DNA of 64,000 nucleotides from a virus. The stretch is taken from IMG/VR virus record IMGVR_UViG_3300031760_000017. One strand, given 5' to 3'. A program made the position numbers and the translations under genes. The notes under the pieces are model-generated. The model was not told the DNA's origin and did no database searches. It saw only the letters and a program-made list of their open reading frames with translations. The first letter of the stretch is position 1. Each line of letters opens with the position of its first letter. Below are positions 1,491 through 53,238 of the stretch, in pieces.

Positions 1491-3014
1491 ATGAATACTT
1501 TTCTTAATCAGATGGTAAGAGACAATAACATTACTCGTACAGAGAACGGTGGTGTAACTCGCAAGACAACAGAATCTAAGGTGCTTGATATGTTTGCGGT
1601 TGGCGGTGCTTATAGAAACCGTTCTGATGCAGATGTTATTCTTCTATTTAAGAACGCATTTGAGGAAAACCGTGAACTTGCTATGAAGTGTCTTTTCTAT
1701 CTTCGTGATGTTCGTGGTGGACAGGGTGAAAGACGTTTCTTCAGAACAGCTTTCCGCTGGCTTTGCGATAAGCATCCAGAAGTAGCAAAGAGAAATCTTA
1801 ATAATGTAAGTGAGTATGGTCGATGGGATGATCTTATTTATGTAGCTGAAGACACTAAGTGCCAGACTGCCGCATTTAATATCATTAAGCATCAGCTTGC
1901 TCTTGATGTTCAGTGCAAGACTCCATCTCTGCTTGCTAAGTGGCTGCCTTCTCAGAATGCTTCTAATAAAGATACTAAGCGTCTTGGTCATGTGCTTGCA
2001 AATTATCTTCATATGACAAACAAGGAATATCGTAAGACTCTTTCAGTACTGCGTGAGCGCATCAACGTTCTTGAACGCCTGATGAGTGCAAACCGTTGGG
2101 ATGAAATCGAGTTTGATAAGATTCCTTCAAGAGCTGGTATTATTTATCGTAATGCATTTGCTCGTCGCGACATTCTTGCCAAGAGATATGAAGCATTTGC
2201 TAAGAGTTCAGAAACCAAGGTAAATGCAGAAGCTCTGTACCCGCATGATATTGCACATAGAGCTTTTGATTATGGAATGAAGCGAGCTGACATTAATGCT
2301 CCTGAGCGTCTCATGCTTCAGAAGTATTGGGATAACCTTAAGGATTTCTATAATGGAAGAGAAGAGAATGGCATTGCGGTAGTTGATGTTTCTGGTTCTA
2401 TGAGTGGTATTCCTATGGAAGCCGCAGTTTCTATGGGAGCCTATATCGCAGATAAGGCTCACGGACCATTTGCTAATCACTTTATTACTTTCTCAGCTAA
2501 CCCTGAGCTAGTAAGATTTGAAGGTGTTGACATTGTTGATAAGTTCAATCGTTGTGTAAAGGCAAATTGGGGTATGAATACTAACGTTGCGGCGGTATTT
2601 GATATGCTTCTAAATACAGCTAAGAAGAAGCATGTAAAGGTTGAAGATATGCCTACTCGAATTTATATCTTCTCAGATATGGAATTTGATAAGTGCATGA
2701 CTCTTGATCCTAATTACCATGATGAATGGGGTTGGGGTTGGCATTCATGCAAGCATCCTTCTTCAACTAAGGAAGTAAATTCTGACCTTGAGAAGATCAA
2801 GAGAAAGTGGAGTGCTGCTGGTTATCAGATGCCTTCTGTAATCTTCTGGAATCTCAACGCTAGAAATAATCGTATTCCTGCTATCGGCGATGGTTTCAGT
2901 TATGTGAGTGGATTCTCTCCTTCCATGATTGATTCTATCCTTAGCGGTAAGGACGGTTATGACCTCATGCTTGATAAGCTCATGTCTAAGCGTTATGCGG
3001 CGGTTGTTGCATAA
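1491..3014 (+). CDS. Ro60-like protein: helical DUF2828/TROVE-like N-terminal region plus C-terminal vWA domain
   Basis: ATG at 1491 follows AAAGGAG; the track's 1464 start is an upstream TTG. N-terminal TENGGV...LDMFAVGGAYR. vWA MIDAS motif VVDVSGSM (DxSxS). FSDMEFD and C-terminal GFSPSMIDSIL parallel Ro60/Rsr features as I recall them. TAG-free and G+C-richer than neighbours. Confidence 0.55.
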   Translation: MNTFLNQMVRDNNITRTENGGVTRKTTESKVLDMFAVGGAYRNRSDADVILLFKNAFEENRELAMKCLFYLRDVRGGQGERRFFRTAFRWLCDKHPEVAKRNLNNVSEYGRWDDLIYVAEDTKCQTAAFNIIKHQLALDVQCKTPSLLAKWLPSQNASNKDTKRLGHVLANYLHMTNKEYRKTLSVLRERINVLERLMSANRWDEIEFDKIPSRAGIIYRNAFARRDILAKRYEAFAKSSETKVNAEALYPHDIAHRAFDYGMKRADINAPERLMLQKYWDNLKDFYNGREENGIAVVDVSGSMSGIPMEAAVSMGAYIADKAHGPFANHFITFSANPELVRFEGVDIVDKFNRCVKANWGMNTNVAAVFDMLLNTAKKKHVKVEDMPTRIYIFSDMEFDKCMTLDPNYHDEWGWGWHSCKHPSSTKEVNSDLEKIKRKWSAAGYQMPSVIFWNLNARNNRIPAIGDGFSYVSGFSPSMIDSILSGKDGYDLMLDKLMSKRYAAVVA

Positions 3015-3026
3015 CTTCTATATATA

Positions 3027-3059
3027 AGGCACGCAGAAATGCGTGCCTTTCTTTTTTTT
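3027..3059 (+). terminator. intrinsic terminator
   Basis: Hairpin AAGGCACGC-agaaat-GCGTGCCTT followed by a T-run. Confidence 0.75.
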
Positions 3060-3101
3060 ATATAAAGAAAAAATCTTAGAACCTGGTTAAATGGTTTTTT
3101 A

Positions 3102-3170
3102 AATGGCTCGGCACGCAGACACTCGTATCTCAGAAACGAAAAGCTGGTTTGGATTTTTTATTTTGCATTT
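3102..3170 (+). repeat. conserved ~68-nt element, copy A (second copy at 60203-60270)
   Basis: AATGGCTCGGCACGCAGACACTCGTA...TTTGGATTTTTTATTTTGCATTT aligns with copy B. There are scattered substitutions and one 1-nt indel. Confidence 0.6.
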
Positions 3171-3261
3171 CTTGGGCAGGAATAAATAAATTAATTTTTC
3201 TAATTTTAATATATAATTAGTGAAAAAATAATTTTTAGCAGGAGGAGCATTATAAAAAACT

Positions 3262-3747
3262 ATGGCAGTATTATTAGAACATTATTCTTTATCTGAAATT
3301 TTTATGTTTACTGTCCTTTTAGCTTTAGCTATAAAAAGTTTAGTATCTTTTTTTGATTGGGCCTATACTTATCTTAAAAAATTCTTTAACAAAGAATATA
3401 AAGAGACTGATGAAAAAAAGGACTTAGAAAAAAGATTACAACATGGCAGCTGGGTTATGACAACTTTACAAACAAATCAAGATATAACTGATCAATATTT
3501 AAAAGAGCTATCTGCAAAGATAGATATGTTAATAGATTCAGATAAAGATGCTATAAAATCTTACATAACAAGCAAGCATCATTACTTTTGTTATTAGGTT
3601 GGATGGATTGATGATTTTAGTTTAGATTGTTTAGAAAAACGTTATTTGCATTATGCAAAAGAAGGAGGAAACTCTTTTATTGAAGGTTTTATGAATGATT
3701 TAAGAAATTTACCAAAAAAACCGCCAACAAATAGTGATAAACATTAA
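3262..3747 (+). CDS. hypothetical membrane protein (N-terminal TM helix), 161 aa with TAG=Gln
   Basis: GGAGGAG RBS. Track ORF 3262-3597 continues in frame through TAG (3598-3600) to TAA at 3745-3747. Confidence 0.55.
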
Positions 3748-3778
3748 AAAATAAAAAGAGATAAAAGGAGTGTTATAA

Positions 3779-5752
3779 GTGGCTTATTTATCAGGTTTAT
3801 ATCCCCCAGTTATTCCAGATGGGTATCCAGCAATGTTACAATAGGGGGAAACAATAGATTCTAAAAAATATTATAAAATATATTTCTCAATACCCAAATT
3901 AAATTCAATTAATAGCATAGATTTAAGATTTATGCAAATATCAATTAGAAAACAATCTACAAATATTTCTGTTTTAGATAAAACTAAATATTTTTCTGAA
4001 ATATTATTAACAGAAGGTTTTTTAGATAATACTAAATCATCAAATGATTATAATTATTATATATTAGTTCCATTAACTGTTTTTGAAAATAATAAGCTTA
4101 ATATAAATTAGTTATATAAAATTCAATTAAGATTTTGTGCAAAAAATTCTAGTATTCAAGAACCAACTTCTTATAGCGGTTCTGCGCTCTCTGTTTGGTT
4201 AAATACATATAATAATAGATTTTCATAGTGGTCAAGAGTTAGCTTGATAAAAGTAATATCAAAACCTACTTTAAATATAAATGGATTAAATGCTGCTTCT
4301 AACTCTCGAATTACTACATCTTTATTTGAAGTTATTGGCTTATTAAGTTTTACTAATTCATCTGAAAGTGAAATTCTAAAAAGTTATCAAATATTTTTAA
4401 AAGATGCTAGTAAAAAAATAATTTTACATCAATCTGATATTATTTATTCAAATAATCTTAATAATCCTAATTAGATTAATTATGCTATTCCATATGAAAT
4501 GTCAGATAGATTAAATTATTATATTACTATACATTATACTACTAATAATCTATATGAAAATACTGTTAATTATCAAATTAATACATATTTTACAAACACT
4601 ACTATAAATCCTCTAAATGTATTTTCTGCAATAGGGAATGAAGAAGATGGATATATAAAACTTACTATAAAAAGCAAGGGCGTTAATTTATATTCTAACA
4701 ATAATATAAAACCATTAGAATTAATTATTAAAAGATCTTCTTCAAAAACTAATTTTACTATATGGGAAGATTGGAAGATTTTTTCTTATACTGAAAAGTA
4801 TATAGATAAATAGTTTTATGATATGACAATAGAAAGCGGAATTTGGTACAAATATGGCTTGCAAATGCGCGGGACTGATTCAAATGGGCGTATAGTAAGA
4901 ACTAATATGCAGTCAATGAACAAACCTGCAATGTGTATTTTTGACAATATGTATTTAACAACAAAAGATAAACAACTAAAAATAAAATTTAACCCCGCAA
5001 TTAGCCAATTAAAATATAATGTATTAGAATCTCAACAAAATACTTTAGGAAGTCAATTTCCATATATTACTAGAAATGGAAATAATTATTATAGAACTTT
5101 TTCTATTGGCGGAATTATATCTGCTTTATCTGAAATTTTACATGAAGATAACTTATATATTTAGACAAGTTTTGAAACTAAAAACTATTGGGAAAAACCT
5201 TATTCTGTTGCGGGAGTTCTTAATAAAAAAGATATGTGGGGCGCTCCTTAGGAAGATATAGATTATAAGAAAAATGGTAATTCTGCAATTATCTTAGAAG
5301 GAGATCTTAATCAAAATACTGAATCAATTTTTGATAGTGTAGGTTTAAATGAGGATGATAATTTAATTCATAATACATAGATTGCGGCAAGCAATAATAC
5401 TTAGATGTTTTCTACAAAAAATAAAAGATTATTTGCTACAGATTCAGAAATTTATAATTAGCAATAGGAATTATATGAAGAATATAATTCAGAACATGGT
5501 ATAAATAAATATCAAGATTTTATTTATGAAAGAGAATTTAGAAAATTAGTTTTTGATTTTTTAAATTCAAATGAAATTAAATTATTCCGTTCAACACAAG
5601 AAGGTAATATCTTAATCAGATTAATTGGAATAAATTTTGAACCAGTTGAAGGAACAAATAGATTAGTTTATTCATTTTCCGCAACCGCAGTTGAAATAGG
5701 GGAAGATACTATTAGTAATTATAAAAAATATAATATTTTAAAGGAGGATTAA
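3779..5752 (+). CDS. tail/baseplate structural protein, 657 aa with TAG=Gln
   Basis: GTG start 8 nt after AAAGGAG. Track ORFs 4244, 4499 and 4823 share its frame. Hand translation shows only TAG interruptions and ends at TAA 5750-5752. Confidence 0.6.
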
Positions 5753-5755
5753 TAT

Positions 5756-7672
5756 ATGAAACATAATTTTCCATATTTACAAGATTCCTCTTTTTTAAAA
5801 TAGTTTGATTAGTTACAATTAAAAGAAAAATTCGTTAAAATTATTGTTTTAAATTTTAAAGAATAGCCAATAGCAGAAATACAAGGGCGTGTAACTGGCG
5901 GCAGTATAAATGTAGATGGATCTTCTAGTATGCGGCGAACCGCAAATCTGTCTGCTATTGTTAAATAGTAGGATTATAATATTTTAGATGTAAGAAATTT
6001 ATTATCAATTAATAAGAAAATAGAAATATTAATTGGCTTTACAAATTTAACTAATAAATATTCTGACTTTCCAATTATTTGGTTCCCTGAGGGAGTATAT
6101 TTAATTTTTTCGCCAAATATTACTCAAAGTGAGACTGGAATTAATATCTCTTTAACTTTAAGGGATAAAATGACGTTATTGAATGGAGAATGCGGCGGTT
6201 CATTTCCCGCATCAGTTACTTTTCATTAGATTGAAGATATTGATGAAAATGGAAATGTAATTATTTCTAATCCAACTATATATCAAATTATTGTTGAATT
6301 AGTAAATCATTTTGGTGAAATCCCGCTGGATAAAATTATTATAAGTGATGTTGACACTAGAATTAAACAAACAGTTCAATGGATTGGTTCTTACCCAGTT
6401 TATTTTGCTAAACATAATAATGAGTTACAAGGTTAGTTTTCTACTAATTATTTTTAGCTCAGACAAACTTTTTCAGATAATGAAATCAAAACATATAATT
6501 ATGGAGATGCTGTTGGATATGTATTAACCGATTTTATTTATCCTGGTGAATTAATAGGAAATGCTGGAGAAAATGTTGTTACTATTTTAGATAAAATAAA
6601 AAATTTACTTGGTAATTTTGAATATTTTTTTGATACAGAAGGTAATTTTCATTTTCAAGAAGTTAAAAATTATCTAAATACAACTTATCCTACAACTTTA
6701 GAAAAAGATCGAGGAAATTTAGATAATTATCTAGTAGACTATGTTGATGGCGCATCTGTATATAGTTTTGAAGATAACAAAATTATTTCATCTATTTCAG
6801 TAGCCCCTTCTTATGAACAAATTAAAAATGATTTTATTGTGTGGGGTAAAAGAACTGAATTAACTGGTGCGGAAGTTCCAATAAGGTATCATTTAGCTAT
6901 TGATAAATGTCCACGAAACAATATATTGCATCAAGGTTTTTATGAATATGTTGATCCATAGGATGATTTAACTAAATATACAAAAAAAGTAATTACTGGA
7001 CAAAACTCAATTAATATTACTTCAAGAGATTATAGAACTGAATTATATTTACAAGGAGTTGAATCTGAAAATACAGCTACCGCAAGTAATTATTATTTTA
7101 TTGAATTAAAGAATTAGTGGCCGAAAATTTATAATATAAAATAGGGAACTTTTTTAGAAGAGTCTTTTGATAATTTAGATTATTTTTTAGATATTATAGA
7201 TACTTCCGCATAGATAGGAAAATTTAGTGTTTAGAATATTGGAAGACGGACAGTAGTTATAAACGATGATTCTATTAATTGTATTTTTGAACCATAGTAT
7301 CCAGAAGTTGTTTTTATAAAAACAGTGGATCAAGATGATCAAGAGTCAAATCCTATAAGAATTGAATGTGAAAATAAAAAAATAGATTATACACAGATAA
7401 AACCAGAAATGTTTAATTTTCTTTTTCAAGGAAATCCTTATAAGTCTGCCTATGAAGAAATAAGGACAGAATTATATCAATATACAACATATAATGAACA
7501 AATAAATTTATCTATTTTACCAATTTATTATTTTGAACCAAATACAAGAATTACTGTAAAGAACAATTAGATTGGGATAGGTGGAGATTATATGATTAAC
7601 AGTTTTTCAATACCTCTTGATATAAATGGCATAATGAATTTAACTTGTATAAAAACATTAGAAAGGATATAA
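5756..7672 (+). CDS. tail/baseplate structural protein, 638 aa with TAG=Gln
   Basis: ATG 5756 is preceded by AAGGAGG. It is in frame with track ORF 7325-7570. Contains QGRVTGGSINVDGSSSMRRTANLS, a phage minor-tail-like motif. Only TAG interrupts the frame, and TAA lies at 7670-7672. Confidence 0.6.
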
Positions 7673-7696
7673 GGTAAATGATTTTTCATTTACCTT
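7671..7696. terminator. bidirectional hairpin between convergent genes
   Basis: AAGGTAAATGA-tttt-TCATTTACCTT. It overlaps the stop codons of the plus-strand gene (7672) and the minus-strand integrase (7690). Confidence 0.55.
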
Positions 7697-8703
7697 ATAT
7701 ATTTTTGATGATCTTGTTTAACTTTTTCATTTGAAACATGTGCATAATGTAAAGTAGTTTCAAGCTAAGAATGTCCTAATACACTTTGAATAGATTCAAT
7801 TGGCATGCCTCTGTTTATCGCAGTTGTTGCCATAGTATATCTAAAACGATGTGGAATAATATCTTCAACACCGCTATTCTAAGTTAATTGATGCAATCTT
7901 TTTCTAACTCCTGAAGTACTTAATCTATTATAAGGGAATCTTAAAGACACAAAAAGAGCTTCATTATTATCTTTTCTTTCATTTATATAGTTTTTTATAC
8001 TAACTACAGTTTTTGCATCTATATAAACAGTTCTCCATTTTCCACCTTTTCCGCAAACAATAATTTCCCTCTTATTTAAATCAACATCTTTAATATTTAA
8101 ACCTACACATTCAGAAATTCTAATACCTGATGAAATTAGTAAATCTACAATAGCAATATCTCTATTTGTTTTACAAGCTCTTCTTATCTATTCTATATCT
8201 ATATCAGTGTACTATTGCCTTGGTTTTACATTAGACTTCTATCTTCTTATTCTTACTGAAGGATCTTTCTAAATATACTCTTCTTCATATAGCCATTTAA
8301 AAAAAGATCGTATAATACTTTTTCTTTGATTTAATGTTTCAGTACTTAATGGTTTACCAGTTTTTTTATTTTTAGATATATATTGAATATATAAACGAAG
8401 ATGATTAACAGTTATTTTTTCTAAAGGTAAACTTAAATAGTTTAACATATCCTATAAACACATTTTATATTGTTCTTTACTTTTTTCTGACATTCTACCC
8501 TATTGCTCTTTTGCCGCCATATAAATATAATAAGCTTCTGGTAATTGATAATTTTCATCTTTTAAATCTACAAAATTTGGTGTGATATTATAATTAAGAG
8601 AATAAGTATTTAATATATTTTTAATTTTATCTATATCCTATCTTTTAAAAAACGGCTATATTTTTAAACAAAATCCTTCAACAAAAGATAAGTTTGAAGA
8701 CAT
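7690..8703 (-). CDS. tyrosine recombinase/integrase (XerC/D-like), 337 aa with TAG=Gln
   Basis: Hand translation gives ...SSGIRISE..., HRFRYTMATT, LGHS-TAG-LETTLHYAHV (catalytic R, HxxR, H and Y). About 10 in-frame TAGs, with no TAA/TGA until 7692-7690. Confidence 0.8.
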
Positions 8704-8912: not shown

Positions 8913-10181
8913 TTACTCACCTAAGATTGTGCCATCGACATACTCAAGACGTTTTACAACAAAATCACGTATCTGCAAAATGTTGTTGTCCGTCTTTCCG
9001 GGGATCGTAATAAAAGCCCCGTCTGCTGTTGTCTCTGCATAATCCTCGGCATAAAGATATGGCGGAATCTGGCTTATGAACTTGTCGAACTCTCCGAGAA
9101 TATTTCCGGCAGAAAGTACGGTTTCTCTAAGTTCCTGATACCTTGCTATTACATCGCTCTGGAAAAGATTCCAAATACGATAATGCAGGTAGTTGTCCTC
9201 TTGAAACTGCGTATATCCGTTATAATTCTCTTGGAAGATTGTGTTATAAGGACGCCATGTTACTTCTTCCTGTCGCACAAGTCCGGTCATTCCCCACGTA
9301 GAATCCAAATCGTACAAACCTGTGTACCACTGTTCTGCATCATACGTAAAAAATGTCTGATTCTTTGCGATCAGGTCAATGGCACATATAGCCCTTACGA
9401 ATATATGCATATCAATGAGCGATTGCAGGTCAATCTTTGAATCTATCCCGGCTATAAACTGCGCATCTGTTGAATTACATATAAACGCCAGTACGGAAGT
9501 CCAACTATCGGCAATGACTGTTGGCATTTCATCGTGAAGTTCATCAGACCATTTTCCATTCATTGTCGGCTGTCTGAAAAACATCGTGTTATCATCAGCA
9601 AGCCCATCTGTCTGAATAATGCAGTTTGTTTCCTCGTCAGAATCCACACCGTACATACCGTCTTTCGGTAAATTCCATGTATAAAGACCATAGTATACAC
9701 CGTTGTGGTAGACCTTGACCGGGAATCCATCAATCGCAAGATTGCTCTTTCTCAGCGTAGCAGGTAGGGATGCAAAATTACTCCTTGACCTGACTGCCTG
9801 TGACCAAAGACGGGCATTAACAATATTTCTTGCATGGCTGTGGTCTATCCAGTTTGCTTTAAGGACAAACTTATTTCTAGGTTTATCCCAATCTCTGAAA
9901 AGACGTTTGCTCTTTGATTTTCTTGCGCTGTCTGTAAAAAGATTTATCGTGTAATTTTTCTTTGGATAGTAGGCAGATGAATCTCCTTGTACTTTAGCTG
10001 TAGCGTAATCCGTGAATGATTCCGTTGCGCTCTTGTATGTTATCTTAATGTTGCTCTTGCCTTCTGTCTTTGTCGCATACAGTTCACCCTCGATGGACAC
10101 AACTGGAATATCACCGTCATTGGGTTCATATCCGCCTACGTTTACAATATTTCCATGATAATCATAAATATAAGCCATCAT
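8913..10181 (-). CDS. CotH-family (kinase-like) protein, probable tail-fibre or receptor-binding accessory
   Basis: Intact 422-aa ORF in the standard code. LKANWIDHSHARNIVNARLW and the following segments resemble CotH. G+C-richer and TAG-free. Confidence 0.6.
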   Translation of the reverse strand: MMAYIYDYHGNIVNVGGYEPNDGDIPVVSIEGELYATKTEGKSNIKITYKSATESFTDYATAKVQGDSSAYYPKKNYTINLFTDSARKSKSKRLFRDWDKPRNKFVLKANWIDHSHARNIVNARLWSQAVRSRSNFASLPATLRKSNLAIDGFPVKVYHNGVYYGLYTWNLPKDGMYGVDSDEETNCIIQTDGLADDNTMFFRQPTMNGKWSDELHDEMPTVIADSWTSVLAFICNSTDAQFIAGIDSKIDLQSLIDMHIFVRAICAIDLIAKNQTFFTYDAEQWYTGLYDLDSTWGMTGLVRQEEVTWRPYNTIFQENYNGYTQFQEDNYLHYRIWNLFQSDVIARYQELRETVLSAGNILGEFDKFISQIPPYLYAEDYAETTADGAFITIPGKTDNNILQIRDFVVKRLEYVDGTILGE

Positions 10182-10189
10182 ATCACCCC

Positions 10190-12087: not shown

Positions 12088-12106
12088 AAAACTTCTTCCT
12101 CCTTTC

Positions 12107-30700: not shown

Positions 30701-30706
30701 AATTAA

Positions 30707-30735
30707 TTGATTTTTTATAAAATTTTTAATATAAT
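30707..30735 (+). promoter_or_regulatory. sigma70-type promoter (TTGATT-N17-TATAAT)
   Basis: -35 at 30707-30712 and -10 at 30730-30735. Confidence 0.6.
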
Positions 30736-30773
30736 TATAATATAAGTTATTAAAGAAAAAAGAGGTAAAAAAT

Positions 30774-44003: not shown

Positions 44004-44020
44004 TAAGGAGACTACATATA

Positions 44021-44272: not shown

Positions 44273-46604
44273 TTTAACAAAAGAATTAGGAACAAATTTT
44301 ATAGAATATGCGGTTGCAGTGAATACTGACCGTGCCATACCTAATGCTAAAGATGGTCTTAAACCTGTTGCTAAACGTATCCTTTGGGGAGCTGAAGATA
44401 AAACTAAATGTGTATCTAGTAAACCACATATAAAAGCCGCAAAACTTGTGGGTGATATTATGGGTACATATCATCCACATGGTGATAGCTCTATTTATGG
44501 CGCTCTTGTACGTCTTTCTCAAAATTGGGTTATGCGTTATCCATTAATTGATTTTCATGGTAATAATGGTAATATTATTGGTGACGGTCCCGCACATATG
44601 CGCTATACTGAATGTCGACTAAGTAAATTAGCAGAAGATGGCTTACTTCAAGGAATAAAGAAAAATAATGTTGATTTTATTGACAACTACGATGAAACAA
44701 CAGAAGAGCCAGTATCTCTTCCAAGCATTTTTCCAAATCTTCTTTGTAATCCTAATAGCGGGATTGGTGTTGCTATGGCTTGCTCTTGGGCACCACACAA
44801 TTTTAGTGAAGTAGCTACGGCAATTAACCAATATTTATCTGGAGAAGAACCAATGTTACCTGGTCCAGATTTCCCAACAGGTGGAATTATTATTAACTCA
44901 AAAGATATTCCAAATATTATGAGAACTGGTCACGGTAGTGTTAAAGTTCGCGGAAGATATGAAATTGATAATCAAAAAATTATTTTTACTGAAATTCCAT
45001 ATGGCACTTCTGTAGAAGGTTTAGTAGCGGAAATTGGGAAAGCTTCAGATGAAAAAGAGATTGAAGGTATTGATAACATTCGTGATGAATCTAATAAGAA
45101 AGGAATTAGAATTGTTATTGAATGTGACAAAGGAATTAATCCTACAAGTATTGTAAAAAAATTATTTTCAAAAACAAATCTTCAAAGCTCTTTTAGTTAT
45201 AATCAAGTTGCTCTTATTGACAAAGTTCCAACAGAGTTAAATCTAAAAGATTGTATTAAGATTTATGTTGATCATAATATTGATTGTCTTATAAGAGAAA
45301 CTAAATTTGATTTAGATAAAGCAACTAATAGACTTGAAATTGTTAATGGTTTATTGCGGGCACTAGAAGATATTGACAATATCATAGCGCTGATTAAAGG
45401 TTCTGAAAATGCAACCGCCGCAAAAGAATCATTAATTAAAAAATATCAATTTACAGAAAATCAAGCTAAAGCAATTTTAGCTATGAGACTTTCTTCTCTT
45501 GCAAAACTTGAAAAAGTAGAACTTAATAAAGAAGCAGAAGATTTAGAAAATAAAATTTTTATGTTAAATCAAATTTTAGATAGTCGAGATAATCAAATTG
45601 ATATTTTAAAAGTTCGATTAAATGGATTAGTTAAAAAATATGGGGATGCCCGTCGTACAGAACTTACTAATATTGAAATAAAACCTGAAGAGAAAATCAT
45701 TGAGGAAGTTGTCCCAGAAGATTGTGTTGTAATTTTATCTCAATCTGGAAATATTAAAAGAATCGCTCAGAAGTCTTTTAAAGTTCAACGTAGAAATGGT
45801 AAAGGTGTAAAAACAAAAGATGATGTTATAATGTCTACCATCTCAACAAATACGATTGATAATTTACTTCTATTTACTAAAGAAGGTAAAATGTTTAAGA
45901 TTATTGTAGATGAAATACCAGTCGGTACTAATGCATCAAAAGGCGTACATGTTGGAAATTTAATTAACATGGGAATTAATGATGAAGTAATTGCAATTAC
46001 TTCTCTTGCTAGAAGTAATACTGCAAAATATGTTGTTTTCTTTACTAAGAAAGGTTTAATAAAAAAGACTTATTTAGAAGAATATACAAAAGTAAAACGT
46101 AGTACCGGAATTGCGGCAATTAAAATTAATGAGGGAGATTCTATTGCTAATGTAGAATTCATTAATGAGGAAGATATTCTTGTAATTACTAAGAATGGAA
46201 TGTCAATTCATTTTGAAAGCAAAAATATTAATCCTATAGGTAGAATCGCCGCAGGTGTTAAAACAATTAAGCTAGATGAAAATGATGAAGTTGTTGTAGG
46301 ACTACCAATTCATTCAGAGAAAGATATAATTGCTATCTTTTCAACAAAAGGATATGGTAAAAAGACTTCTATCAAAGAATTTAATTTACAAGGTAGAGGC
46401 GGCAAGGGTCTTGTAATTTATAGACCAAGCGCAATATATGGAGAGATTGCGGGAGCTGTAGTTGTGTCAGATAAAGACACGATTTTACTTACCGGTCAGC
46501 CAAATTCTATATGTATTGCCGCAACTGATTTGCCTTTGTTAACTAGAACAAGCTTTGGTAATATTATGATAAAATCAAACATTTCATCTATTGTAAAATT
46601 TTAA
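44262..46604 (+). CDS. gyrA: type IIA topoisomerase subunit A (GyrA/ParC-like)
   Basis: DGLKPVAKRILW, YHPHGDSSIYGALVRLSQ and RYTECRL (catalytic Tyr region), with C-terminal beta-pinwheel repeats. Confidence 0.85.
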   Translation: MQNDLTKELGTNFIEYAVAVNTDRAIPNAKDGLKPVAKRILWGAEDKTKCVSSKPHIKAAKLVGDIMGTYHPHGDSSIYGALVRLSQNWVMRYPLIDFHGNNGNIIGDGPAHMRYTECRLSKLAEDGLLQGIKKNNVDFIDNYDETTEEPVSLPSIFPNLLCNPNSGIGVAMACSWAPHNFSEVATAINQYLSGEEPMLPGPDFPTGGIIINSKDIPNIMRTGHGSVKVRGRYEIDNQKIIFTEIPYGTSVEGLVAEIGKASDEKEIEGIDNIRDESNKKGIRIVIECDKGINPTSIVKKLFSKTNLQSSFSYNQVALIDKVPTELNLKDCIKIYVDHNIDCLIRETKFDLDKATNRLEIVNGLLRALEDIDNIIALIKGSENATAAKESLIKKYQFTENQAKAILAMRLSSLAKLEKVELNKEAEDLENKIFMLNQILDSRDNQIDILKVRLNGLVKKYGDARRTELTNIEIKPEEKIIEEVVPEDCVVILSQSGNIKRIAQKSFKVQRRNGKGVKTKDDVIMSTISTNTIDNLLLFTKEGKMFKIIVDEIPVGTNASKGVHVGNLINMGINDEVIAITSLARSNTAKYVVFFTKKGLIKKTYLEEYTKVKRSTGIAAIKINEGDSIANVEFINEEDILVITKNGMSIHFESKNINPIGRIAAGVKTIKLDENDEVVVGLPIHSEKDIIAIFSTKGYGKKTSIKEFNLQGRGGKGLVIYRPSAIYGEIAGAVVVSDKDTILLTGQPNSICIAATDLPLLTRTSFGNIMIKSNISSIVKF

Positions 46605-46655
46605 GTGAAGAATATTTATTCTTCACTTGTTTTTTATAAAAAATTATATTATAAT
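46603..46655 (+). promoter_or_regulatory. fused terminator-promoter cassette
   Basis: Hairpin AAGTGAAGAATA-ttt-ATTCTTCACTT. -35 TTGTTT at 46627-46632 and TATAAT at 46650-46655. Confidence 0.65.
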
Positions 46656-46684
46656 ATTATTATAATATAAAAAGGATTAAAAAT

Positions 46685-48691
46685 ATGAAAAGCAAAATAG
46701 ATATTGGTATTTTAATTAAAAAACTTAATAAAGCTACTAAAGCCTATGATGCAGGGCATCCTATTATGACAGATAGAGAATGGGATGACCTTTATTTTGA
46801 GCTAGTCGAATGGGAAAGACAAACTGGTATTATTTTTGCAGATTCTCCAACCCAAAAAATTCATTTTGAAAAAGTTTCTGAATTAAAAAAAGTGAAACAT
46901 AATCATCTTATGCTTTCTCTTAATAAAACAAAAGATATTAAAGAAGTGTTAGATTTTGTAAAAAATAATCCTTGGATTGCTATGGCAAAAATGGATGGTT
47001 TAACATGTTCGCTTAGATACCTTCATGGAGAACTTGTTTCTGCAGAAACTCGCGGGGATGGTCTTATTGGTGAAGATGTCACCCATAATGCAAAGGTTAT
47101 TTCATCTATCCCTCAAAAAATTAATTACACTGATGAATTAATTGTTGATGGAGAAATCATTTGTACTTATGAAGATTTTAAACCATTTGAAAGAACTTAT
47201 AAAAATCCTAGAAATTTTGCAAGTGGAAGTATTAGATTATTAGATTCAAAAGAATGTCAAAAAAGACATCTTACTTTTGTTGCCTGGGATTCTTTTTGTG
47301 ATAATAAAATTTATGATGAGTATTTAAATATTCCTTATAATATTCAGATTACATTGTCTTTAAAATTACAAGTTCTTCAAGATTTAGGTTTTACAGTGGT
47401 TCCTCATTTGGTTGATGTAGAGGAATGGTCTGTTGAAGACGCTATATCAATAATTAGAGACAAATATCATACTATCTATCCTATTGATGGCGTTGTAATT
47501 AAATACAATGATATAGATGATTATAATGCGGCTGGCCGCACAGAACACCATTTTAAAGGCGGTTTAGCATATAAGTTTTATGATGAACTTTATGATACTC
47601 GTTTAAAATATATTCAGTGGACAATGGGAAGAACAGGCGTCCTTACTCCAGTGGCAGTTTTTGACCCCATTGATATTGATGGTTCAACAGTAGAAAGAGC
47701 GTCACTTCATAATGTTAGTGTTATGAGAGAGATTCTCGGTGATTGTGCTTATCGCGGTGAACCGTTAAAAATTGCTAAAATGAATCAAATTATTCCACAG
47801 GTCATAGAAGCTGGTCCAAAATATGATTATGGATATGTAATAAGTCATGGTGGAGTTTCCGCAAATGATGTTATTGAAAGATGTCCAATTTGTTATGGAG
47901 AGGTTGAATATAAAGAAAGTTCGGAAGGGGTCATAAATGCATACTGCACAAATCCAAAGTGTGAAGGAAAACTAGTTAATAGACTTGATCACTTTTGTGG
48001 GAAAAAAGGATTAGACATTAAAGGGATTTCAAAAGCAACTCTTGGAAAATTTATTGAATGGGGCTGGGTAGAAAACATAGAAGATTTATATTACATTTCC
48101 GAAAAATTTAGGTCGGACTTCTTACTTAAACCTGGCTTCGGAGTTAAATCAGTTATTAAAATTTTAAATGCAATAGAAGAAAGTAAACATACAACACTTG
48201 ATGCTTTTATTTCTGCTATTGGTATCCCTCTTATTGGACGAGCAGTTGCTAAAGATTTAACTAATTATTTTGAAACTTATGAAGATTTCCGTGATGCTGT
48301 AAAAGATAATTCATATCATTTCTATGATTTAGATAACTTTGGTATAGAAATGGAAAATAGTATTAAGAATTTTGATTACGCGGAAGCTGATAGACTTTCT
48401 AAAATTTTATATATTGAAGCCCCAGTTGTAAGCAACAATCAAATAAATAATAGTCTTTCAGGAAAAACTATAGTCATTACGGGAAAACTTACAAAATTTA
48501 AGAATAGAGCTGAATTGAAATCAGTTATTGAAAAACATGGCGGGAAAGTTACAGACTCAATTTCCGCAAAAACAGATATGTTAATAAACAACGATATAAA
48601 TAGCACATCATCTAAAAATAAAGCCGCAAAAGCACGCAATATACCAATTATAACAGAAACTGATTTTATACAGCTTTATATTGAAAATTAA
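46685..48691 (+). CDS. ligA: NAD-dependent DNA ligase
   Basis: Adenylation motif AKMDGLT, a four-Cys Zn finger CPICYG...CTNPKCEG, HhH repeats and a C-terminal BRCT domain (GKTIVITGKL). Confidence 0.85.
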   Translation: MKSKIDIGILIKKLNKATKAYDAGHPIMTDREWDDLYFELVEWERQTGIIFADSPTQKIHFEKVSELKKVKHNHLMLSLNKTKDIKEVLDFVKNNPWIAMAKMDGLTCSLRYLHGELVSAETRGDGLIGEDVTHNAKVISSIPQKINYTDELIVDGEIICTYEDFKPFERTYKNPRNFASGSIRLLDSKECQKRHLTFVAWDSFCDNKIYDEYLNIPYNIQITLSLKLQVLQDLGFTVVPHLVDVEEWSVEDAISIIRDKYHTIYPIDGVVIKYNDIDDYNAAGRTEHHFKGGLAYKFYDELYDTRLKYIQWTMGRTGVLTPVAVFDPIDIDGSTVERASLHNVSVMREILGDCAYRGEPLKIAKMNQIIPQVIEAGPKYDYGYVISHGGVSANDVIERCPICYGEVEYKESSEGVINAYCTNPKCEGKLVNRLDHFCGKKGLDIKGISKATLGKFIEWGWVENIEDLYYISEKFRSDFLLKPGFGVKSVIKILNAIEESKHTTLDAFISAIGIPLIGRAVAKDLTNYFETYEDFRDAVKDNSYHFYDLDNFGIEMENSIKNFDYAEADRLSKILYIEAPVVSNNQINNSLSGKTIVITGKLTKFKNRAELKSVIEKHGGKVTDSISAKTDMLINNDINSTSSKNKAAKARNIPIITETDFIQLYIEN

Positions 48692-48791: not shown

Positions 48792-49079
48792 ATGTTAAAG
48801 GACAATAGTAAACTTGTTTTCAATTTTGTTAAGTAGCACGATGGAGAAGATTTTACAGCACAGGATATTGCTGATGCAACTGGTCTTGGAGTAAGACAGG
48901 TCAATGGTATTATTACATCAGCTTTCCAGCGTTATAAGGATAAAGATAAGAATGAAATTCCGCTAATGCAACGTGTTGTAGCTGAAATTGTAGATCCTGA
49001 GACAGGACTTCATAAACCGGTTAAATTCATTCAGCTTACTGATGAAGGTAGAGAATTCGATCCAGATGCAGAGGATTGA
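48792..49079 (+). CDS. small winged-helix-like protein (95 aa), TAG at codon 15
   Basis: AAAGGAG RBS. ...FTAQDIADATGLGVRQVNGIITSAF... Ends at TGA 49077-49079. G+C-richer. Confidence 0.45.
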
Positions 49080-49146: not shown

Positions 49147-50091
49147 ATGGTTGTATTAACAATAATAGATATTATTATTTTTTGTGTTGCGATAGTATTA
49201 ATTCATAAAGCTGATTTAAAAAAAGTTAATATCGCTAAATAGCAATAGAAGAAACAACAGTTAATCAATTAGATTAAATAGTTATCTGATACATACAATG
49301 ATTATAATTTAAAAATACAAAACATCCTTCAAGAAACTCAAATTGTTAAAGCTAGAGCTGAAGAAACAACAGCTAATTATATTGCTAATCAAAAACAAAT
49401 AGCACTCGATTATATTAATAATCAATAGCAATTAGCAGAACAAAAAATTAAAGAAATAAATGCTAATACTTAGCAAGAAATTGCGGCAATTCATGAAGAT
49501 CTTCAAAATATTAGGTGTTCTGCCGCACAATAGAAAGAACAAATTCAAAACGAGCTTAATAAACTAAAAGCCTCTTTGAGTGCGGGCGTAGAAGCCCGCC
49601 TTCGCGAACAATAGAAAAAAGATAAAATTAATTTTTATAAACTTTCTATTAGTGATGCGGATTTAGCTGATGTTAAAATGCTAGAAAATTTAAAAGCATC
49701 TTTCCATAAACCTGTTGTTTTAAGTAAACTTATTTGGACTCAATATTTTCAAAAGCAAATGACTGAATTGTGTGATAGAGTACTTGGTAAAAAAACTGTT
49801 TGCGGCATTTATAAAATTACCAATTTATTAACAGAACAATGTTATATTGGTCAAAGTGTTAATATTAGTGATAGATGGAAACAACATTGTAAATGCGGCC
49901 TTGGTATAGAAGCATCAGCTACCAATATTTTATATAATTCAATGCAAAAAGATAAAGTTTGGAATTTTACTTTTGAATTATTATAGGAGTGCCCGCGTAA
50001 TTTACTAAATGAAAAGGAAGCTTTTTGGATTGATACTTATAGTAGTAATATATATGGATTAAATACTATGAAAGGAATTAATAAAAAATGA
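49147..50091 (+). CDS. DUF4041-like coiled-coil protein with C-terminal GIY-YIG/T5orf172-type nuclease domain, 314 aa with TAG=Gln
   Basis: N-terminal TM helix and coiled coil with many TAGs. C-terminal CGIYKITNLLTEQCYIGQSVNISDRWKQH...FELL-TAG-ECPRNLLNEKEAFWI. In frame with track ORF 49678. TGA at 50089-50091. Confidence 0.6.
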
Positions 50092-50942
50092 AATTTTAGA
50101 ATACAGATGTCTGGGGATTTTAGCATGCAATCAGGGGTATGAGAAATCCTAAAAATAGCTGGAATAAAAGTGATAGTCTTTTTGAAATTGCTTATATCGA
50201 ACAAATGGAGGCTGATTGGGAAGTCGCTTCAAGTTATGTCGATGCAAATGAAAAATATGATTTTTAGAGTGAATATGATAAATATTATGAAGCACAAGAA
50301 AAATATGCGGATTGGCTTCTTAAAAATGGTGTTTTAAAAGATCAAAATGAATGTTTTAGTTATGCTTTTATTGGACCAAATGATATGAAACTGGCTCAAA
50401 CTCTTATTAAAGCTGGTCCTGAACACCGAAAATTTCTACGCCAAATCTTTGTATCTGTTGATATTACTGCACCACTTTATTGGTGGAAATAGATGGATCA
50501 ATATAAAATTGGGACAGTCACAGATAGCACATCAACTATGCATAAACTAACGAGTAAACCTATTACTCTTGAAAGTTTTGAAATTGATGATTTTAATCCA
50601 GAAATTGTATATTACGAAATTCTTGATGCTCAAAATGATATTGGTATGCTTGCGGATTTTATAATTGAACAACTTGAATTTCTTCGTCAAAAATATCTTG
50701 AAACAAAAGACAAAAGATATTGGAAAGAATTAGTACGATGGTTGCCTGAAAGCTGGTTACAAAAAAGAACATGGACTGCAAATTATGAAGTTCTTTATTC
50801 TATAGTTTTACAAAGAGGGCATCATAAATTAGAAACAGAATGGGATAAAGGTTTTATACATTGGTGCGCCTCATTGCCATATGCAAAGGATTTGATTTTT
50901 TATGGAGAAGAACGAGAAAAAATATATAATTTATATGCATAA
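50088..50942 (+). CDS. ThyX-like (flavin-dependent thymidylate synthase fold) protein with divergent active-site motif, 284 aa with TAG=Gln
   Basis: ATG overlaps the upstream stop (ATGA). ITAPLYWWK-TAG-MDQYKIGTVTDSTSTMHKL aligns by eye with ThyX ...[25 protein letters not shown], but RHR and SxR are not conserved. A later WTANYEVLYSIVLQRGHH resembles the ThyX C-terminal helix. Confidence 0.4.
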
Positions 50943-51528
50943 AAATAAAATTAATAATAAAATGTATATAGGACAAACTTGCCAAAATCCACCATCAAAA
51001 AGATGGAAACCTTGTAATTATAAAGGATCTTCAAGATTTTATAATGCTATTTTAAAATATGGTTGGATTAATTTTGAACATATTATTTTAAAAAAATGTT
51101 CTTCACTATAGGAAGCAAATTAGTAGGAAAGAAATTTTATTAGTCAATATCAAACTACAAATCCAGAATTTGGATATAATATTATGCCGGGTGGCTCTAA
51201 TAAAGAAATTCCTTTATAGGTTCGAGAAAAAATGTCTAAAAATCATAGAGATGTTAAGGGGAAAAATAATTATTTTTACGGAAAACATTTTAAAGGTAAA
51301 GAACATCCATTTTATGGACAACATCATTCGGATGAAACTAAACAAAAATTAAAAAAATCTTTATTAAATAAAAATGGAAAAGCAGTAAAATGCATTGAAG
51401 AAAATAAAAATTTTCCTTCCGCAAGAGAAGCTGCAAGATATTATAATATGAAAACTTCTAGTCACATTTCTGCATGTTGCAATGGCAAAAGACAAACTGC
51501 TAATAAATTTCATTGGGAATATATTTAA
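50902..51528 (+). CDS. GIY-YIG homing endonuclease (Seg/I-TevI-like, free-standing), 208 aa with TAG=Gln
   Basis: YIIYMHKNKINNKMYIGQT...YNAILKYGWINFEHIIL, then NUMOD3-like repeats (GKHFKGKEHPFYGQHHSDETKQK) and a C-terminal helix-turn-helix-like NFPSAREAARYYN. Its start overlaps the ThyX-like 3' end. Confidence 0.7.
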
Positions 51529-51556: not shown

Positions 51557-51585
51557 TTGAAAAATAAAAAATAAAATGTTATAAT
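51557..51585 (+). promoter_or_regulatory. sigma70-type promoter with extended -10 (TTGAAA-N17-TATAAT, TGT upstream)
   Basis: -35 at 51557-51562 and -10 at 51580-51585. Confidence 0.6.
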
Positions 51586-51626
51586 ATAATTATAAAATGA
51601 AAATTATATTATAAGGGAGACCAAAA

Positions 51627-51788
51627 ATGAAGCTTGAAGGAAATAGAAAAGAAAAGTTTATACAAATGCTTGAAAAAGAAATCTTCAATGATGAGAGTGC
51701 TTTTATAGAAAACTATGAAGAAGATTGGTATGATTTAGTAATTTTTTTTGAAGATTTAAAAAATGGTCAAATTGTAATTGCATATTAA
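51627..51788 (+). CDS. hypothetical small acidic protein (53 aa)
   Basis: AAGGGAG RBS. MKLEGNRKEKFIQMLEKEIFNDESAF... Confidence 0.4.
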   Translation: MKLEGNRKEKFIQMLEKEIFNDESAFIENYEEDWYDLVIFFEDLKNGQIVIAY

Positions 51789-51800
51789 GAGGAATAAGAA

Positions 51801-52181
51801 ATGACTAAAAAAGAAAGATTTATTGAATTTGTTAATGAACTCATGGAAATGGTAGATATAAACGAATGGGATGAGGATGAAAAAAAAGATTGGAAAGATG
51901 CTTTTGATTTTTTTGAAGAACTTAAAAATAATAAAGTAAAAACCGCAAAAGAAATGACTGAAAACGGTACCAAACTTCTTTCTTGGATGCAAGAGAATAA
52001 AGAAAAAATGTCAAATGTCTTTACATCTAAGGAAGCTGCGGAAGGACTTTTCACAAGCGGCCGCTCTATTGCAGGAACCATGAGAAAGTTAGTAAATGAT
52101 GGTTATGTAAAGAAAACTGGTAAAGACCCTGTTCAGTATTCTTTAACTGAAGCTGGAGAAAATTATCAGTTTGACAATTAA
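51801..52181 (+). CDS. winged-helix (MarR-like) DNA-binding protein
   Basis: C-terminal ...FTSKEAAEGLFTSGRSIAGTMRKLVNDGYVKKTG. Confidence 0.45.
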   Translation: MTKKERFIEFVNELMEMVDINEWDEDEKKDWKDAFDFFEELKNNKVKTAKEMTENGTKLLSWMQENKEKMSNVFTSKEAAEGLFTSGRSIAGTMRKLVNDGYVKKTGKDPVQYSLTEAGENYQFDN

Positions 52182-52199
52182 AAAATTTTTTGTTATAAT
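52171..52199 (+). promoter_or_regulatory. sigma70-type promoter (TTGACA-N17-TATAAT)
   Basis: -35 at 52171-52176 (inside the end of the upstream CDS) and -10 at 52194-52199. Confidence 0.6.
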
Positions 52200-52236
52200 A
52201 TAAAAGTAAAGTTGATTTAATTTAAGGAGAAAATTA

Positions 52237-53238
52237 ATGAAAAAGAACGCAAGATTTATTAACACAGAACGAATTGAAGGATATGTTTATAGTACAGGTA
52301 GTAATTTTAATCAGCTTTCTGAAAGAACGACAGGAGAGAATTCTAAACATCCTGGAACAAAGTATATTGCAGGAGACCTCGATATTGCTGTAGATGAAGA
52401 GGGTCTAAATGTAATTACTATTCATTATACATATGCAACACCGACATATGGTAGTGGTCAAGTAAATAATACATATACAGCTCTTAAAAGAATTATTGAT
52501 AATCCAGATAGAACTTGGATTAATGGCGGTAAAGAAAATGCCTTTAAGGTTCAGTGTACTGGAGTTTCTATTGCAATCAATGATTTTATTGGAGCAGATG
52601 GAAAATTCGTTGCCGCAATTAGAAATGAAGGTGGATTTTGTTCTATCGTAAATGAACTTGGTCCAGAAGCAAATAGAAATACTTTCTCTGCTGATATGCT
52701 TATTACAAAAGTTACTCATATTGATGCAGATCCAGATAAGAATATTGAAAATGATTTCACAACAGTTAGTGGAGCAATCTTTGGATATGGAAAAACAATT
52801 CCTGTTCTTCTTCCTGCTTCATTTACAGTTCGTAGCGAAGGTGGTATGAAGTACTTTGAAAATCTTGATGCTACACCTTCAGACCCCATTTTTACAAAAG
52901 TTTGGGGACGTATTAATTGTATGACTATTAAGGTAAAGAAAACTGAAGAATCAGCTTTTGGTGGTGATTATGTTCAGGAGTCTGAGCGTAAAAGCCGTGA
53001 GTACCTTATTACAGGAACAGCAAAAGTACCATATGATTTTGGTGATGAGGAAGTTCTTACTGCTAATGATGTAAGTACAATGAATCAGAATCGTCAGATT
53101 ATGCTTGCAGAAGTTGAAAGCAGACATAAGGAGCGCCAGGCAGAAAAGGCTGCAAATGGAGTAAGCTTTGAAGCTACTACAAAAGCTCCTTCCGCAACAA
53201 AAGCGGCAGGCGTACCTGAGGGTGGATTTGTATTTTAA
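52237..53238 (+). CDS. hypothetical protein (333 aa); its position suggests a ssDNA-binding or recombination partner of the adjacent ATPase
   Basis: Intact G+C-richer ORF with AAGGAG RBS. No motif recognised. Confidence 0.3.
   Translation: MKKNARFINTERIEGYVYSTGSNFNQLSERTTGENSKHPGTKYIAGDLDIAVDEEGLNVITIHYTYATPTYGSGQVNNTYTALKRIIDNPDRTWINGGKENAFKVQCTGVSIAINDFIGADGKFVAAIRNEGGFCSIVNELGPEANRNTFSADMLITKVTHIDADPDKNIENDFTTVSGAIFGYGKTIPVLLPASFTVRSEGGMKYFENLDATPSDPIFTKVWGRINCMTIKVKKTEESAFGGDYVQESERKSREYLITGTAKVPYDFGDEEVLTANDVSTMNQNRQIMLAEVESRHKERQAEKAANGVSFEATTKAPSATKAAGVPEGGFVF

Follow-up and report, generated by a model that had tools for sequence, protein, structure and literature searches.

Codon usage and TAG content in a recoded siphovirus-type phage: probable superposition of a functional TAG partition, a native codon-usage gradient and one exchanged tail-fibre cassette

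The genes in a 64,000-nt stretch of IMG/VR virus record IMGVR_UViG_3300031760_000017 (the window, analysed here at its full length) differ in codon usage and in the number of in-frame TAG codons, which raises the question of whether these differences single out imported genes. A first-pass annotation had set ten genes (a Ro60-like gene, three genes of a tail-fibre cassette, a flotillin, a homologue of the major vault protein (MVP), an RNA ligase and three further genes) apart from the rest as a G+C-richer, TAG-poor class of largely accessory or cargo functions. These were thought to have been acquired from standard-code donors or to be selected for expression before recoding is active, and in either case to mark the non-core genome. 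Our analysis revealed that the gene-to-gene differences are real but ordinary: they probably reflect programmed expression, selection on the codons of conserved genes and a single exchanged cassette. The pattern is likely to consist of three superimposed layers: a functional partition of TAG, a native codon-usage gradient, and one foreign fibre cassette.

The bacteriophage is AT-rich (30% GC in the window) and of the siphovirus type, and TAG is a sense codon in it, served by the phage's own tRNA(CUA). Coverage of the window by open reading frames (ORFs) of at least 100 codons rises from 36 kb to 61 kb once TAG is counted as sense. TAG is read through, because the 2,883-codon tape-measure ORF contains 71 in-frame TAGs and a tail ORF of 1,563 codons contains 26, and because a tRNA(CUA) gene is present in a 24-tRNA array. 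The gene set curated for the analysis comprised 52 genes with 19,110 codons and 204 in-frame TAGs; some per-gene statistics (TAG heterogeneity and the all-gene correlations) were run over 45 genes.

The genes singled out by the first-pass annotation are present where it had placed them, and most of their functional labels were upheld by comparison with Pfam, PHROG and PDB. Together with the adjoining AAA_24 gene they are as follows (GC3, G+C content at third codon positions; axis 1, first axis of the correspondence analysis described below):

1491-3014, plus strand: Ro60-like gene, DUF2828 and DUF7788 vWA domains, PHROG 850; 0 TAG, GC 0.408, GC3 0.329
8913-11575, minus strand: distal tail-fibre cassette, consisting of a CotH-like gene (8913-10181), a LamG-like gene (10190-11014) and the C-terminal ~185 codons of the fibre gene
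11576-12114, minus strand: N-terminal portion of the fibre gene, of native type; GC3 0.07-0.25, with the single TAG of the gene at codon 40 (11995-11997)
28277-29851, plus strand: SPFH/flotillin gene; one TAG, at codon 3, ordinary GC3 of 0.17, shifted synonymous usage
30774-33263, plus strand: MVP homologue; CAG:CAA 26:1, GC3 0.23, one TAG at codon 656 (32739-32741)
33779-35017, plus strand: RNA ligase; 0 TAG, codon-biased, followed by a terminator at 35024-35048
48792-49079, plus strand: small acidic protein; codon-biased (axis 1 = 0.48), one TAG at codon 15
51801-52181, plus strand: gene of unknown function; 0 TAG
52237-53238, plus strand: YorF family (PHROG 2367); 0 TAG
53255-54295, plus strand: AAA_24 gene; 2 TAG

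Each of the ten genes has zero or one in-frame TAG, so that their 3,888 codons include 4 TAGs instead of the expected 41.5 (Poisson P=1.3e-13), while the density in the rest of the window is 13.1 per 1000 codons. Their GC content (0.32-0.41) exceeds that of the other genes (0.19-0.34; Mann-Whitney p=2e-6). The codons proposed as diagnostic fared unequally: CTT (0.60 of Leu codons vs 0.18-0.32) and CGT (0.30 of Arg codons vs 0.14-0.19) are enriched, but GCT is not (0.45 vs 0.40-0.47). CAG, AAG and TTC separate the set more than CTT and CGT do, with CAG making up 0.72 of its Gln codons vs 0.10-0.20 elsewhere. At its AT-biased end the codon axis is characterized by TTA and CAA; TAG-rich genes also use AGA and GAA more often. 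In an unsupervised within-amino-acid correspondence analysis the named genes occupy the top of axis 1: the Ro60-like gene, which has the highest score in the window, the CotH-like, LamG-like and RNA ligase genes, 48792-49079, MVP and 52237-53238, and next to them AAA_24, 51801-52181, flotillin and the mosaic fibre gene. The three genes in 51801-54295 score 0.19-0.37.

The observation behind the annotation was therefore partly confirmed: the difference is real, but the genes form neither one class nor two clean classes. Whole-gene GC and GC12 (G+C content at codon positions 1 and 2) are unimodal (likelihood ratio test, p=0.70), GC3 forms one mass with three outliers (Ro60-like, CotH-like and LamG-like genes), and only codon axis 1 prefers two components (p~0.005), with a shoulder; three tiers with exceptions describe the genes better than two classes. 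The extra GC of flotillin and of 52237-53238, both with GC3 of 0.17, comes from amino-acid composition (codon positions 1 and 2). The proposed link between TAG and composition is strong among genes of at least 200 codons (rho=-0.78, and -0.77 without the islands) but weak over all 45 genes (rho=-0.31 with axis 1; about -0.2 and not significant with GC and GC3). It is weak because 12 AT-rich genes (2,200 codons, GC3<0.16) and five replication genes (2,943 codons, GC3 0.15-0.19; 38.7 TAGs expected) contain no TAG.

TAG density is set by function. It amounts to 20.9 per 1000 codons in late tail, tape-measure, baseplate, holin and lysin genes and 24.8 in recombinase, RuvC, GIY-YIG and nuclease-like genes, vs 3.3 in replication genes, 0.9 in the vault/flotillin/Ro60-like/RNA-repair set and 0.9 in the fibre cassette (heterogeneity among genes: chi2=202, df 44, p=4e-22). 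The main native genes on which this partition can be followed are:

3779-5752 and 5756-7672, plus strand: two native late baseplate/tail-like genes; 11 and 15 TAG, GC3 0.13
7690-8703, minus strand: tyrosine recombinase; 10 TAG in 337 codons (30 per 1000), native AT-rich composition, among the densest TAG genes of the window
13604-18295, minus strand: large tail protein; 26 TAG, AT-biased late tier
18612-27263, minus strand: tape-measure protein; 2,883 codons, 71 TAG, AT-biased late tier
37098-39383, plus strand: endolysin with GH73 (glycoside hydrolase family 73) glucosaminidase, Amidase_2, two PG_binding_1 and SH3 domains; 14 TAG
40849-48691, plus strand: GyrB, GyrA and NAD-dependent DNA ligase; no TAG, native AT-type codons (middle tier)
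49147-51528, plus strand: two genes resembling GIY-YIG homing endonucleases and a third of unknown function; 9, 4 and 4 TAG, a TAG-rich block within the replication region
54897-56441, plus strand: DnaB-like helicase; TAG-free, native codon usage
58423-60204, plus strand: replication-region gene; 8 TAG
61047-62228, plus strand: Dda-like helicase; TAG-free, native codon usage

The codon-biased genes outside the fibre cassette turned out to be old residents. With MVP as query, 49 related loci were gathered, mostly on contigs of 120-190 kb with GC of 27-44% (related loci and contigs are designated by L numbers). MVP is 54-98% identical in these 49 contigs, of which 28 also contain the RNA ligase, 36 the kinase, 14 flotillin and 8 the Ro60-like gene; the last-named is in addition 99% identical in L058, an independent contig of a near-identical phage (baseplate genes 95-96% and an M78-like gene 97% identical). 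The proposal that such genes mark the non-core genome is not supported for most of the set, as these genes are among the best-conserved ones of the region. The bias is conserved with them: the median share of CAG in orthologues is 0.93 for MVP, 0.92 for the Ro60-like gene (which shows the same bias in the 8 MVP-anchored relatives), 0.85 for flotillin and 0.75 for RNA ligase (same bias in all 28 loci), vs 0.07-0.33 for their neighbours, and G/C-ending codons at two-fold sites are more frequent in MVP than in AAA_33 (35 of 35 loci), Metallophos_2 (37 of 37) and GyrB (23 of 23). No TAG occurs in MVP in the 49 loci, while the tape-measure genes of relatives have 7-50 and their endolysins 4-17.

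The shift in the biased set affects particular codons. CTT (0.67), CAG (0.72), AAG (0.40), TTC and CGT (0.33) are up, ATA (0.02), TTA and CAA are down, and TAC, AAC and GAG are barely altered, with no general shift in GC3; the relative synonymous codon usage (RSCU) of the set correlates with that of native replication genes in the window at r=0.88. Tested as an island, the group of Ro60-like, flotillin, MVP, RNA ligase and YorF genes showed no combination of general deviation and patchy distribution. Because the shift is codon-specific and the same bias is found in orthologues from dozens of related contigs, these comparisons of sequence point to selection on translation rather than import. 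Terminator-like sites are enriched in the window (11 vs 4.1±1.8 by chance) and stand directly after flotillin (a strong one, 29860-29889), MVP (33280-33310) and RNA ligase, which suggests separate transcription units for these genes; a promoter-like site precedes MVP (30707-30735). Selection to be expressed ahead of recoding, the other option proposed, would agree with the codon-specific, family-wide bias of the non-fibre genes, their timing and level of expression being something that we infer.

Some of these genes could be characterized further. The Ro60-like gene matches PHROG 850, 'RNA-binding protein' (E=5e-124), but its Pfam domains are DUF2828 and DUF7788, not TROVE, and no sequence match to solved Ro60 was found in PDB. 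By its domains (MVP_shoulder, 5e-23; Vault_3, 2e-7) the product of 30774-33263 can be assigned as an MVP homologue, and MVPs in PDB match it colinearly at E~1e-11 (residues 320-605 vs 329-611); MVP has no PHROG family, and its matches in the phage collection are limited to three megaphage records (LR756500/501/503; 462-735 kb) with 42-44% identity. The TAG at MVP codon 656 is unique to this phage, with none of 49 orthologues having a TAG. Under the standard code the stop would fall just before the C-terminal coiled-coil region, and two products are conceivable. Isolated TAGs also occur near the N-terminus of otherwise TAG-free genes, at flotillin codon 3 (28283-28285; kept in L004, L005 and L037), codon 15 of 48792-49079 (48834-48836) and fibre codon 40 (11995-11997); they could be translational gates.

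The fibre cassette is a true foreign island, swapped between near-identical phages and common to standard-code phages, so that for these genes, and for no others of the set, acquisition from standard-code donors is supported. Over 2.66 kb (8913-~11575) it has GC of ~0.41 and GC3 of 0.33-0.41 and no TAG. One edge lies at 8900, at the 3' end of the CotH gene, where GC steps from 0.15 to 0.40; the other is intragenic, GC3 rising from 0.07-0.20 to 0.33-0.38 near fibre codon 180 (~11575), and the earlier placement of this boundary at about 11560 was accurate. Flanks are 95-99% identical between the window and L058 vs 62-83% in the cassette (fibre 68-75%, LamG-like 62%, CotH 83%), and the L058 version already has four TAGs. 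Homologues of CotH with 75% (L053) and 53% (L055) identity belong to unrelated standard-code phages of 47-49% GC, where CotH is located just as here, closing the tail module behind a LamG-like gene; in these phages the cassette is a low-GC island (41-43% GC). Its RSCU correlates with that of the standard-code phages' cassettes at r=0.85 vs 0.51-0.58 with native genes. A search for CotH relatives among viral contigs found none. Around the cassette a search for flanking repeats or att-like sites gave short chance matches only, and the adjacent tyrosine recombinase has native composition and is not at this site in L058.

The three layers could arise as follows. Late structural, lysis, recombinase and homing-endonuclease genes write about a quarter of the codons of one amino acid, most likely Glu (see below), as TAG, while replication and accessory genes shun it, a partition that is functional and probably temporal. 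TAG-free genes can be translated by unmodified host machinery, the TAG-rich set needing the phage suppressor. In the second layer, the accessory set (Ro60-like, flotillin, MVP, RNA ligase, YorF and two small proteins) would be under translational selection, being expressed early and/or strongly from its own promoter-terminator units; the avoided CAA and TTA correspond to tRNAs of the phage array (Gln-UUG and Leu-UAA), whose role in the programme is likewise one that we infer. In the third, the cassette for the receptor-binding tip is exchanged horizontally, including with higher-GC standard-code phages, and has not yet acquired resident codons and TAG.

Several points weigh against the explanation by three layers. 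Many small AT-rich genes are TAG-free, so that codon bias and TAG avoidance are separable traits. Replication-region genes with TAG exist (58423-60204 with 8, 50088-50942 with 4), and holin and endolysin lie within an otherwise TAG-free plus-strand block, so that the partition is not positional. The biased set matches standard-code proxy phages only in part (r=0.26-0.63), and promoter-like sites in the window are not above shuffles (45 vs 49±7). Moreover, the relatives were retrieved via MVP itself, which demonstrates long residence and not universality in the family. As to the recoding of the related loci themselves, many of them hold early genes only, which limits the calling of recoded genomes from ORF statistics.

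Other explanations have to account for the same facts. It is quite improbable that all codon-rich, TAG-poor genes are recent standard-code imports which have not yet drifted to the composition of the phage. The fibre cassette is demonstrably foreign, the Ro60-like, CotH and LamG-like genes are true GC3 outliers, and the MVP homologues of unrelated megaphages (42-44% identity) imply that this gene family moves over long time spans. However, MVP, RNA ligase, flotillin and Ro60-like genes with 54-99% identity and the same relative bias are present in dozens of relatives (GC 27-44%), the RSCU of the non-fibre set is nearest to native genes (0.88) with only selected codons shifted, and the GC3 of MVP (0.23) and flotillin (0.17) is within the native range, which largely refutes this explanation for the non-fibre genes. 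It is hardly credible at all that there are no classes, the pattern resulting from differences in amino-acid composition and gene length plus sampling noise within a unimodal continuum, or from chimeric assembly. Such a continuum would agree with the unimodal whole-gene GC and GC12, with the excess of flotillin and YorF at codon positions 1 and 2 and with small genes blurring every correlation, but the within-amino-acid codon analysis still splits the set off, the TAG deficit has P=1e-13, and gene order and islands are seen again in L058, L003 and L004, which were assembled independently from other samples; RSCU-based analysis and synteny in independent contigs refute it.

Unlikely, too, but less so, is a scheme in which relaxed and strong constraint act under AT-biased mutation and timing is irrelevant. 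Here weakly constrained, fast-evolving tail, tape-measure and lysis genes and selfish endonucleases drift to TTA, CAA and ATA and accumulate TAG, the most constrained or most expressed genes resist, and TAG is avoided because suppression is imperfect and hence costly. Relatives are indeed more similar, by median identity, in MVP (67%), RNA ligase (67%) and GyrB (75%) than in the tape measure (52%) and the endolysin (47%). TAG columns are less conserved than those of ordinary Glu sites, E being the majority residue in 38% of the former vs 65% of the latter, and TAG codons turn over fast among close relatives. The kinase and phosphatases, however, show low conservation (35-44%) but lack TAG in every relative; the five replication genes with 0 TAG in 2,943 codons exhibit complete absence instead of a graded decrease; and TAG is found where the residue is essential, as at the lysin's catalytic Glu, and is thus not merely tolerated at unimportant sites. 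A layered origin, with TAG partitioned by function, remains our preferred explanation. In general, composition islands of a recoded phage are not readable as 'cargo', as selection on conserved genes and transfer leave the same signature, and only comparison with relatives distinguishes selected resident genes from transferred ones.

The amino acid inserted at TAG is quite likely glutamate, and not glutamine, in this phage and in its relatives with an identical tRNA(CUA) (at least three more IMG/VR contigs, 94-144 kb), judging from alignments of TAG sites. In related loci (tblastn) the codons opposite window TAGs are GAA (138), TAG (99), GAT (59) and CAA (50), and likelihood over empirical substitution profiles gives Glu for the tape-measure, endolysin, baseplate and GIY-YIG genes as well as for each of 16 loci. 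When the recombinase was compared with 117 database homologues, acidic residues proved to be conserved at four of its ten TAG columns; at one of these, E occurs in 29 of 29 distant homologues and D in 82 of 88 closer ones. Columns 3, 36, 60 and 221 of the endolysin are E in 84, 111, 89 and 87 of ~112 homologues, respectively. Column 36 (MCL-TAG-TGYG; window 37203-37205) is the invariant Glu column of the GH73 domain; its counterpart in solved FlgJ is the Glu of 'AALETGWG', the GH73 catalytic acid, and a deposited FlgJ mutant chain has Ala at this residue. With endolysin and recombinase pooled, acid-conserved columns make up 8 of 21 TAG sites, 1 of 29 Gln-codon (CAR) sites and 12 of 36 Glu sites, and Gln-conserved columns 0 of 21 TAG vs 13 of 29 CAR sites (Fisher test, TAG vs Gln sites: p=0.002 and 0.0002; TAG vs Glu sites: p=0.78). 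Reading TAG as Glu gives late proteins 7.8% Glu, as in other genes, while reading it as Gln gives them 6.7% Gln vs ~3% elsewhere. Membership among phages that decode TAG as glutamine (table 15) was thus not borne out.

The closest database homologues do show Q at TAG columns, because their own TAGs have been translated with table 15. What speaks against glutamate is that relatives of at least 80% identity swap TAG with CAA/CAG 12 times and with GAA twice. The swap sites are not Gln-conserved, with E common there, and the swaps fit C-to-T mutation of CAG where exchange of Q and E is tolerated. TAG may also be decoded ambiguously as Glu and Gln. A reverse test favoured Gln for L004, L005 and L037; a different meaning of TAG in these close relatives was ruled out by their identical suppressor tRNA and by the avoidance of Gln-conserved columns, the TAGs of relatives never falling on eight strongly Gln-conserved lysin columns.

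The features of the suppressor agree with glutamate. By exact protein matches the window corresponds to about positions 15,369-79,368 of an 84,156-bp ENA metagenome contig. The suppressor belongs to the 24-tRNA array, which lies within the 10 kb upstream of the window (L002 designates the upstream region of the same contig) and reaches into the window with its last four genes:

396-1395, plus strand: tRNA genes Gln-UUG, Gly-UCC, Arg-UCU and Cys-GCA, the final four of the array
L002:3536-3609 (same contig, ~4.97 kb upstream of window position 1): suppressor tRNA(CUA), 74 nt

The sequence of the suppressor is identical in three related contigs. It has C1:G72 in place of U1-A72, and its D-loop contains two extra nucleotides that are found in the phage tRNA-Glu and missing from the phage tRNA-Gln; according to a review of tRNA identity, such acceptor and D-loop features bar a tRNA from the Glu-to-Gln amidotransferase. 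The suppressor would be glutamylated by the host glutamyl-tRNA synthetase (GluRS) and, lacking the U1-A72 pair and having the longer tRNA-Glu-like D-loop, would be excluded from the amidotransferase and so deliver Glu. Its similarity to the other 23 phage tRNAs (at most 65% identity, best to tRNA-Trp) is uninformative for amino-acid identity. The tRNA census starts 6.8 kb into the contig, and further tRNAs, a second suppressor among them, may lie before that point. The U34 tRNAs of the array read TTA, CAA, AGA, GGA, GAA and other A-ending codons.

In the literature consulted on phage recoding only TAG-to-Gln and TGA-to-Trp are described, and TAG-to-Glu would be a kind of stop-codon reassignment with no described counterpart in phages or bacteria. 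If it is true, the rule that phages reassign only in these two ways fails, annotation with table 15 puts Gln at ~2% of residues in the late proteins of the clade, catalytic residues included, and a natural case of GluRS co-opted for a stop codon is at hand.

In recoded gut phages (crAss-like, Lak, Agate, Sapphire and others) late genes contain TAG and replication genes lack it (Borges et al., bioRxiv 10.1101/2021.08.26.457843). The phage studied here is like them in being AT-rich, in having TAG in structural and lysis genes and none in replication genes, and in encoding its own tRNA(CUA), and it shares the proposed logic by which late genes are untranslatable until the code change is in force. 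It differs in that its TAG sites behave as Glu, only TAG-to-Gln and TGA-to-Trp being reported for those phages, and in that their integrases avoid the recoded codon, whereas the recombinase here is among the most TAG-dense genes; their description also contains neither a second, conserved tier of codon bias nor a fibre cassette of foreign origin that lacks TAG within the late module, both of which were found here. Another comparable group is phAss-1/'Phassvirus' (PMC10607447; bioRxiv 10.1101/2023.11.10.566534), with genomes of ~136 kb, tape-measure genes exceeding 3,000 codons, large tRNA arrays, Sup-CTA tRNAs, TAG in late genes and Clostridia as predicted hosts. The same sources describe the MVP-encoding gut phages ctOa11 and ct2Ri15, of which ctOa11 is cited both in this group and as an MVP carrier. 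The giant tape-measure gene, the tRNA array, the amber suppressor, TAG in late genes and MVP are common to these phages and ours. TAG was assigned to Gln in that group from TerL alignments and tRNAscan-SE, whereas it is Glu-like here.

Mosaicism of tail-fibre and receptor-binding cassettes is classical in T-even and lambdoid phages. The present case resembles it in the kept N-terminal anchor, the intragenic junction, the replacement of the distal part together with downstream genes, and the occurrence of the same cassette in unrelated phages. Unlike the classical cases, the exchange crosses a genetic-code boundary, a TAG-free cassette standing in a module of 17-25 TAG per 1000 codons, and after the exchange the cassette starts gaining TAG, as the four in L058 demonstrate. 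It is a clean case of a module that crosses the code boundary and then gains the recoded codon, and bears on whether recoding isolates phages genetically. Translational codon selection and tRNA arrays that offset host tRNA pools are also known, e.g., in T4-type phages; as there, 'optimal' codons are enriched and ATA is shunned in the conserved genes, and the phage tRNAs read the A-ending codons of late genes. Here, unlike in T4-type phages, the bias, with its presumed connection to expression, coincides with avoidance of a reassigned stop. The partition of TAG in recoded phages, phage MVPs, fibre mosaicism and codon selection were thus already known; new are the code-crossing cassette caught before adapting, the TAG-dense recombinase and, above all, the evidence for TAG as Glu.

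Pfam and PHROG annotation of the window identified tail, baseplate and holin genes, the four-domain endolysin, the tyrosine recombinase and three GIY-YIG endonucleases; for replication, gyrase B and A, NAD-dependent ligase, DnaB- and Dda-like helicases and SPbeta-type YorF and YorH families; and an accessory block with Metallophos, SPFH/flotillin, the MVP homologue, RNA ligase, AAA_33 kinase and a second phosphoesterase. The module of phosphoesterase, flotillin, MVP, RNA ligase, polynucleotide-kinase-like protein and phosphatase (27464-36667) recurs in 49 phage contigs, often with the Ro60-like gene nearby. An Rfam scan of the window found only four tRNAs, with no Y-RNA-like gene adjoining the Ro60-like gene. 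Searches of the phage collection gave short chance matches only for the replication block (blastn) and no match for the endolysin (tblastn). Two pointers to the host are available: the CotH-bearing contig of one of the standard-code phages was binned with a rumen Lachnospiraceae metagenome-assembled genome, and the lysis genes are of the Gram-positive type.

The gyrB gene is split into 40849-42615 and a C-terminal exon at 43604-43786 by a ~1-kb insert (42616-43603) bearing a TAG-containing GIY-YIG gene (42712-43452); it is unbroken in the relatives L012 and L014, and no group I intron was found in the insert by Rfam scan. A tiny ORF on the minus strand (13340-13576; 78 codons, 19% GC) has six TAGs (77 per 1000) and is probably real, as it is kept at 77% identity in L058. 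The homologue of the baseplate gene 5756-7672 in L003 (9167-13861) is in three pieces, with insertions of ~2.4 kb and 0.3 kb.

Other observations concern tRNA arrays and their surroundings. A gene for a sigma-70-family factor lies upstream of the array on the same contig (L002 1-523) and may drive the phage's own transcription programme. Anticodon-UUA tRNAs of the ochre suppressor type (ARAGORN) occur in the phage arrays L067 (2898-2972; contig of relative L008) and L074 (2021-2094), and tmRNA genes lie within arrays that also have a CUA suppressor (L074 4572-4852, L080 7283-7560). Two adjacent CUA suppressor tRNAs were found in unrelated phage contigs: in L064 (1226-1394), L094 (994-1162), L099 (258-426) and L105 (4007-4175) a tRNA of ~75 nt is paired with one of ~90 nt that has a long variable arm, while in L073 (8726-8874) both are ~75 nt. 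Such pairs hint that TAG may be served by tRNAs of differing identity classes.

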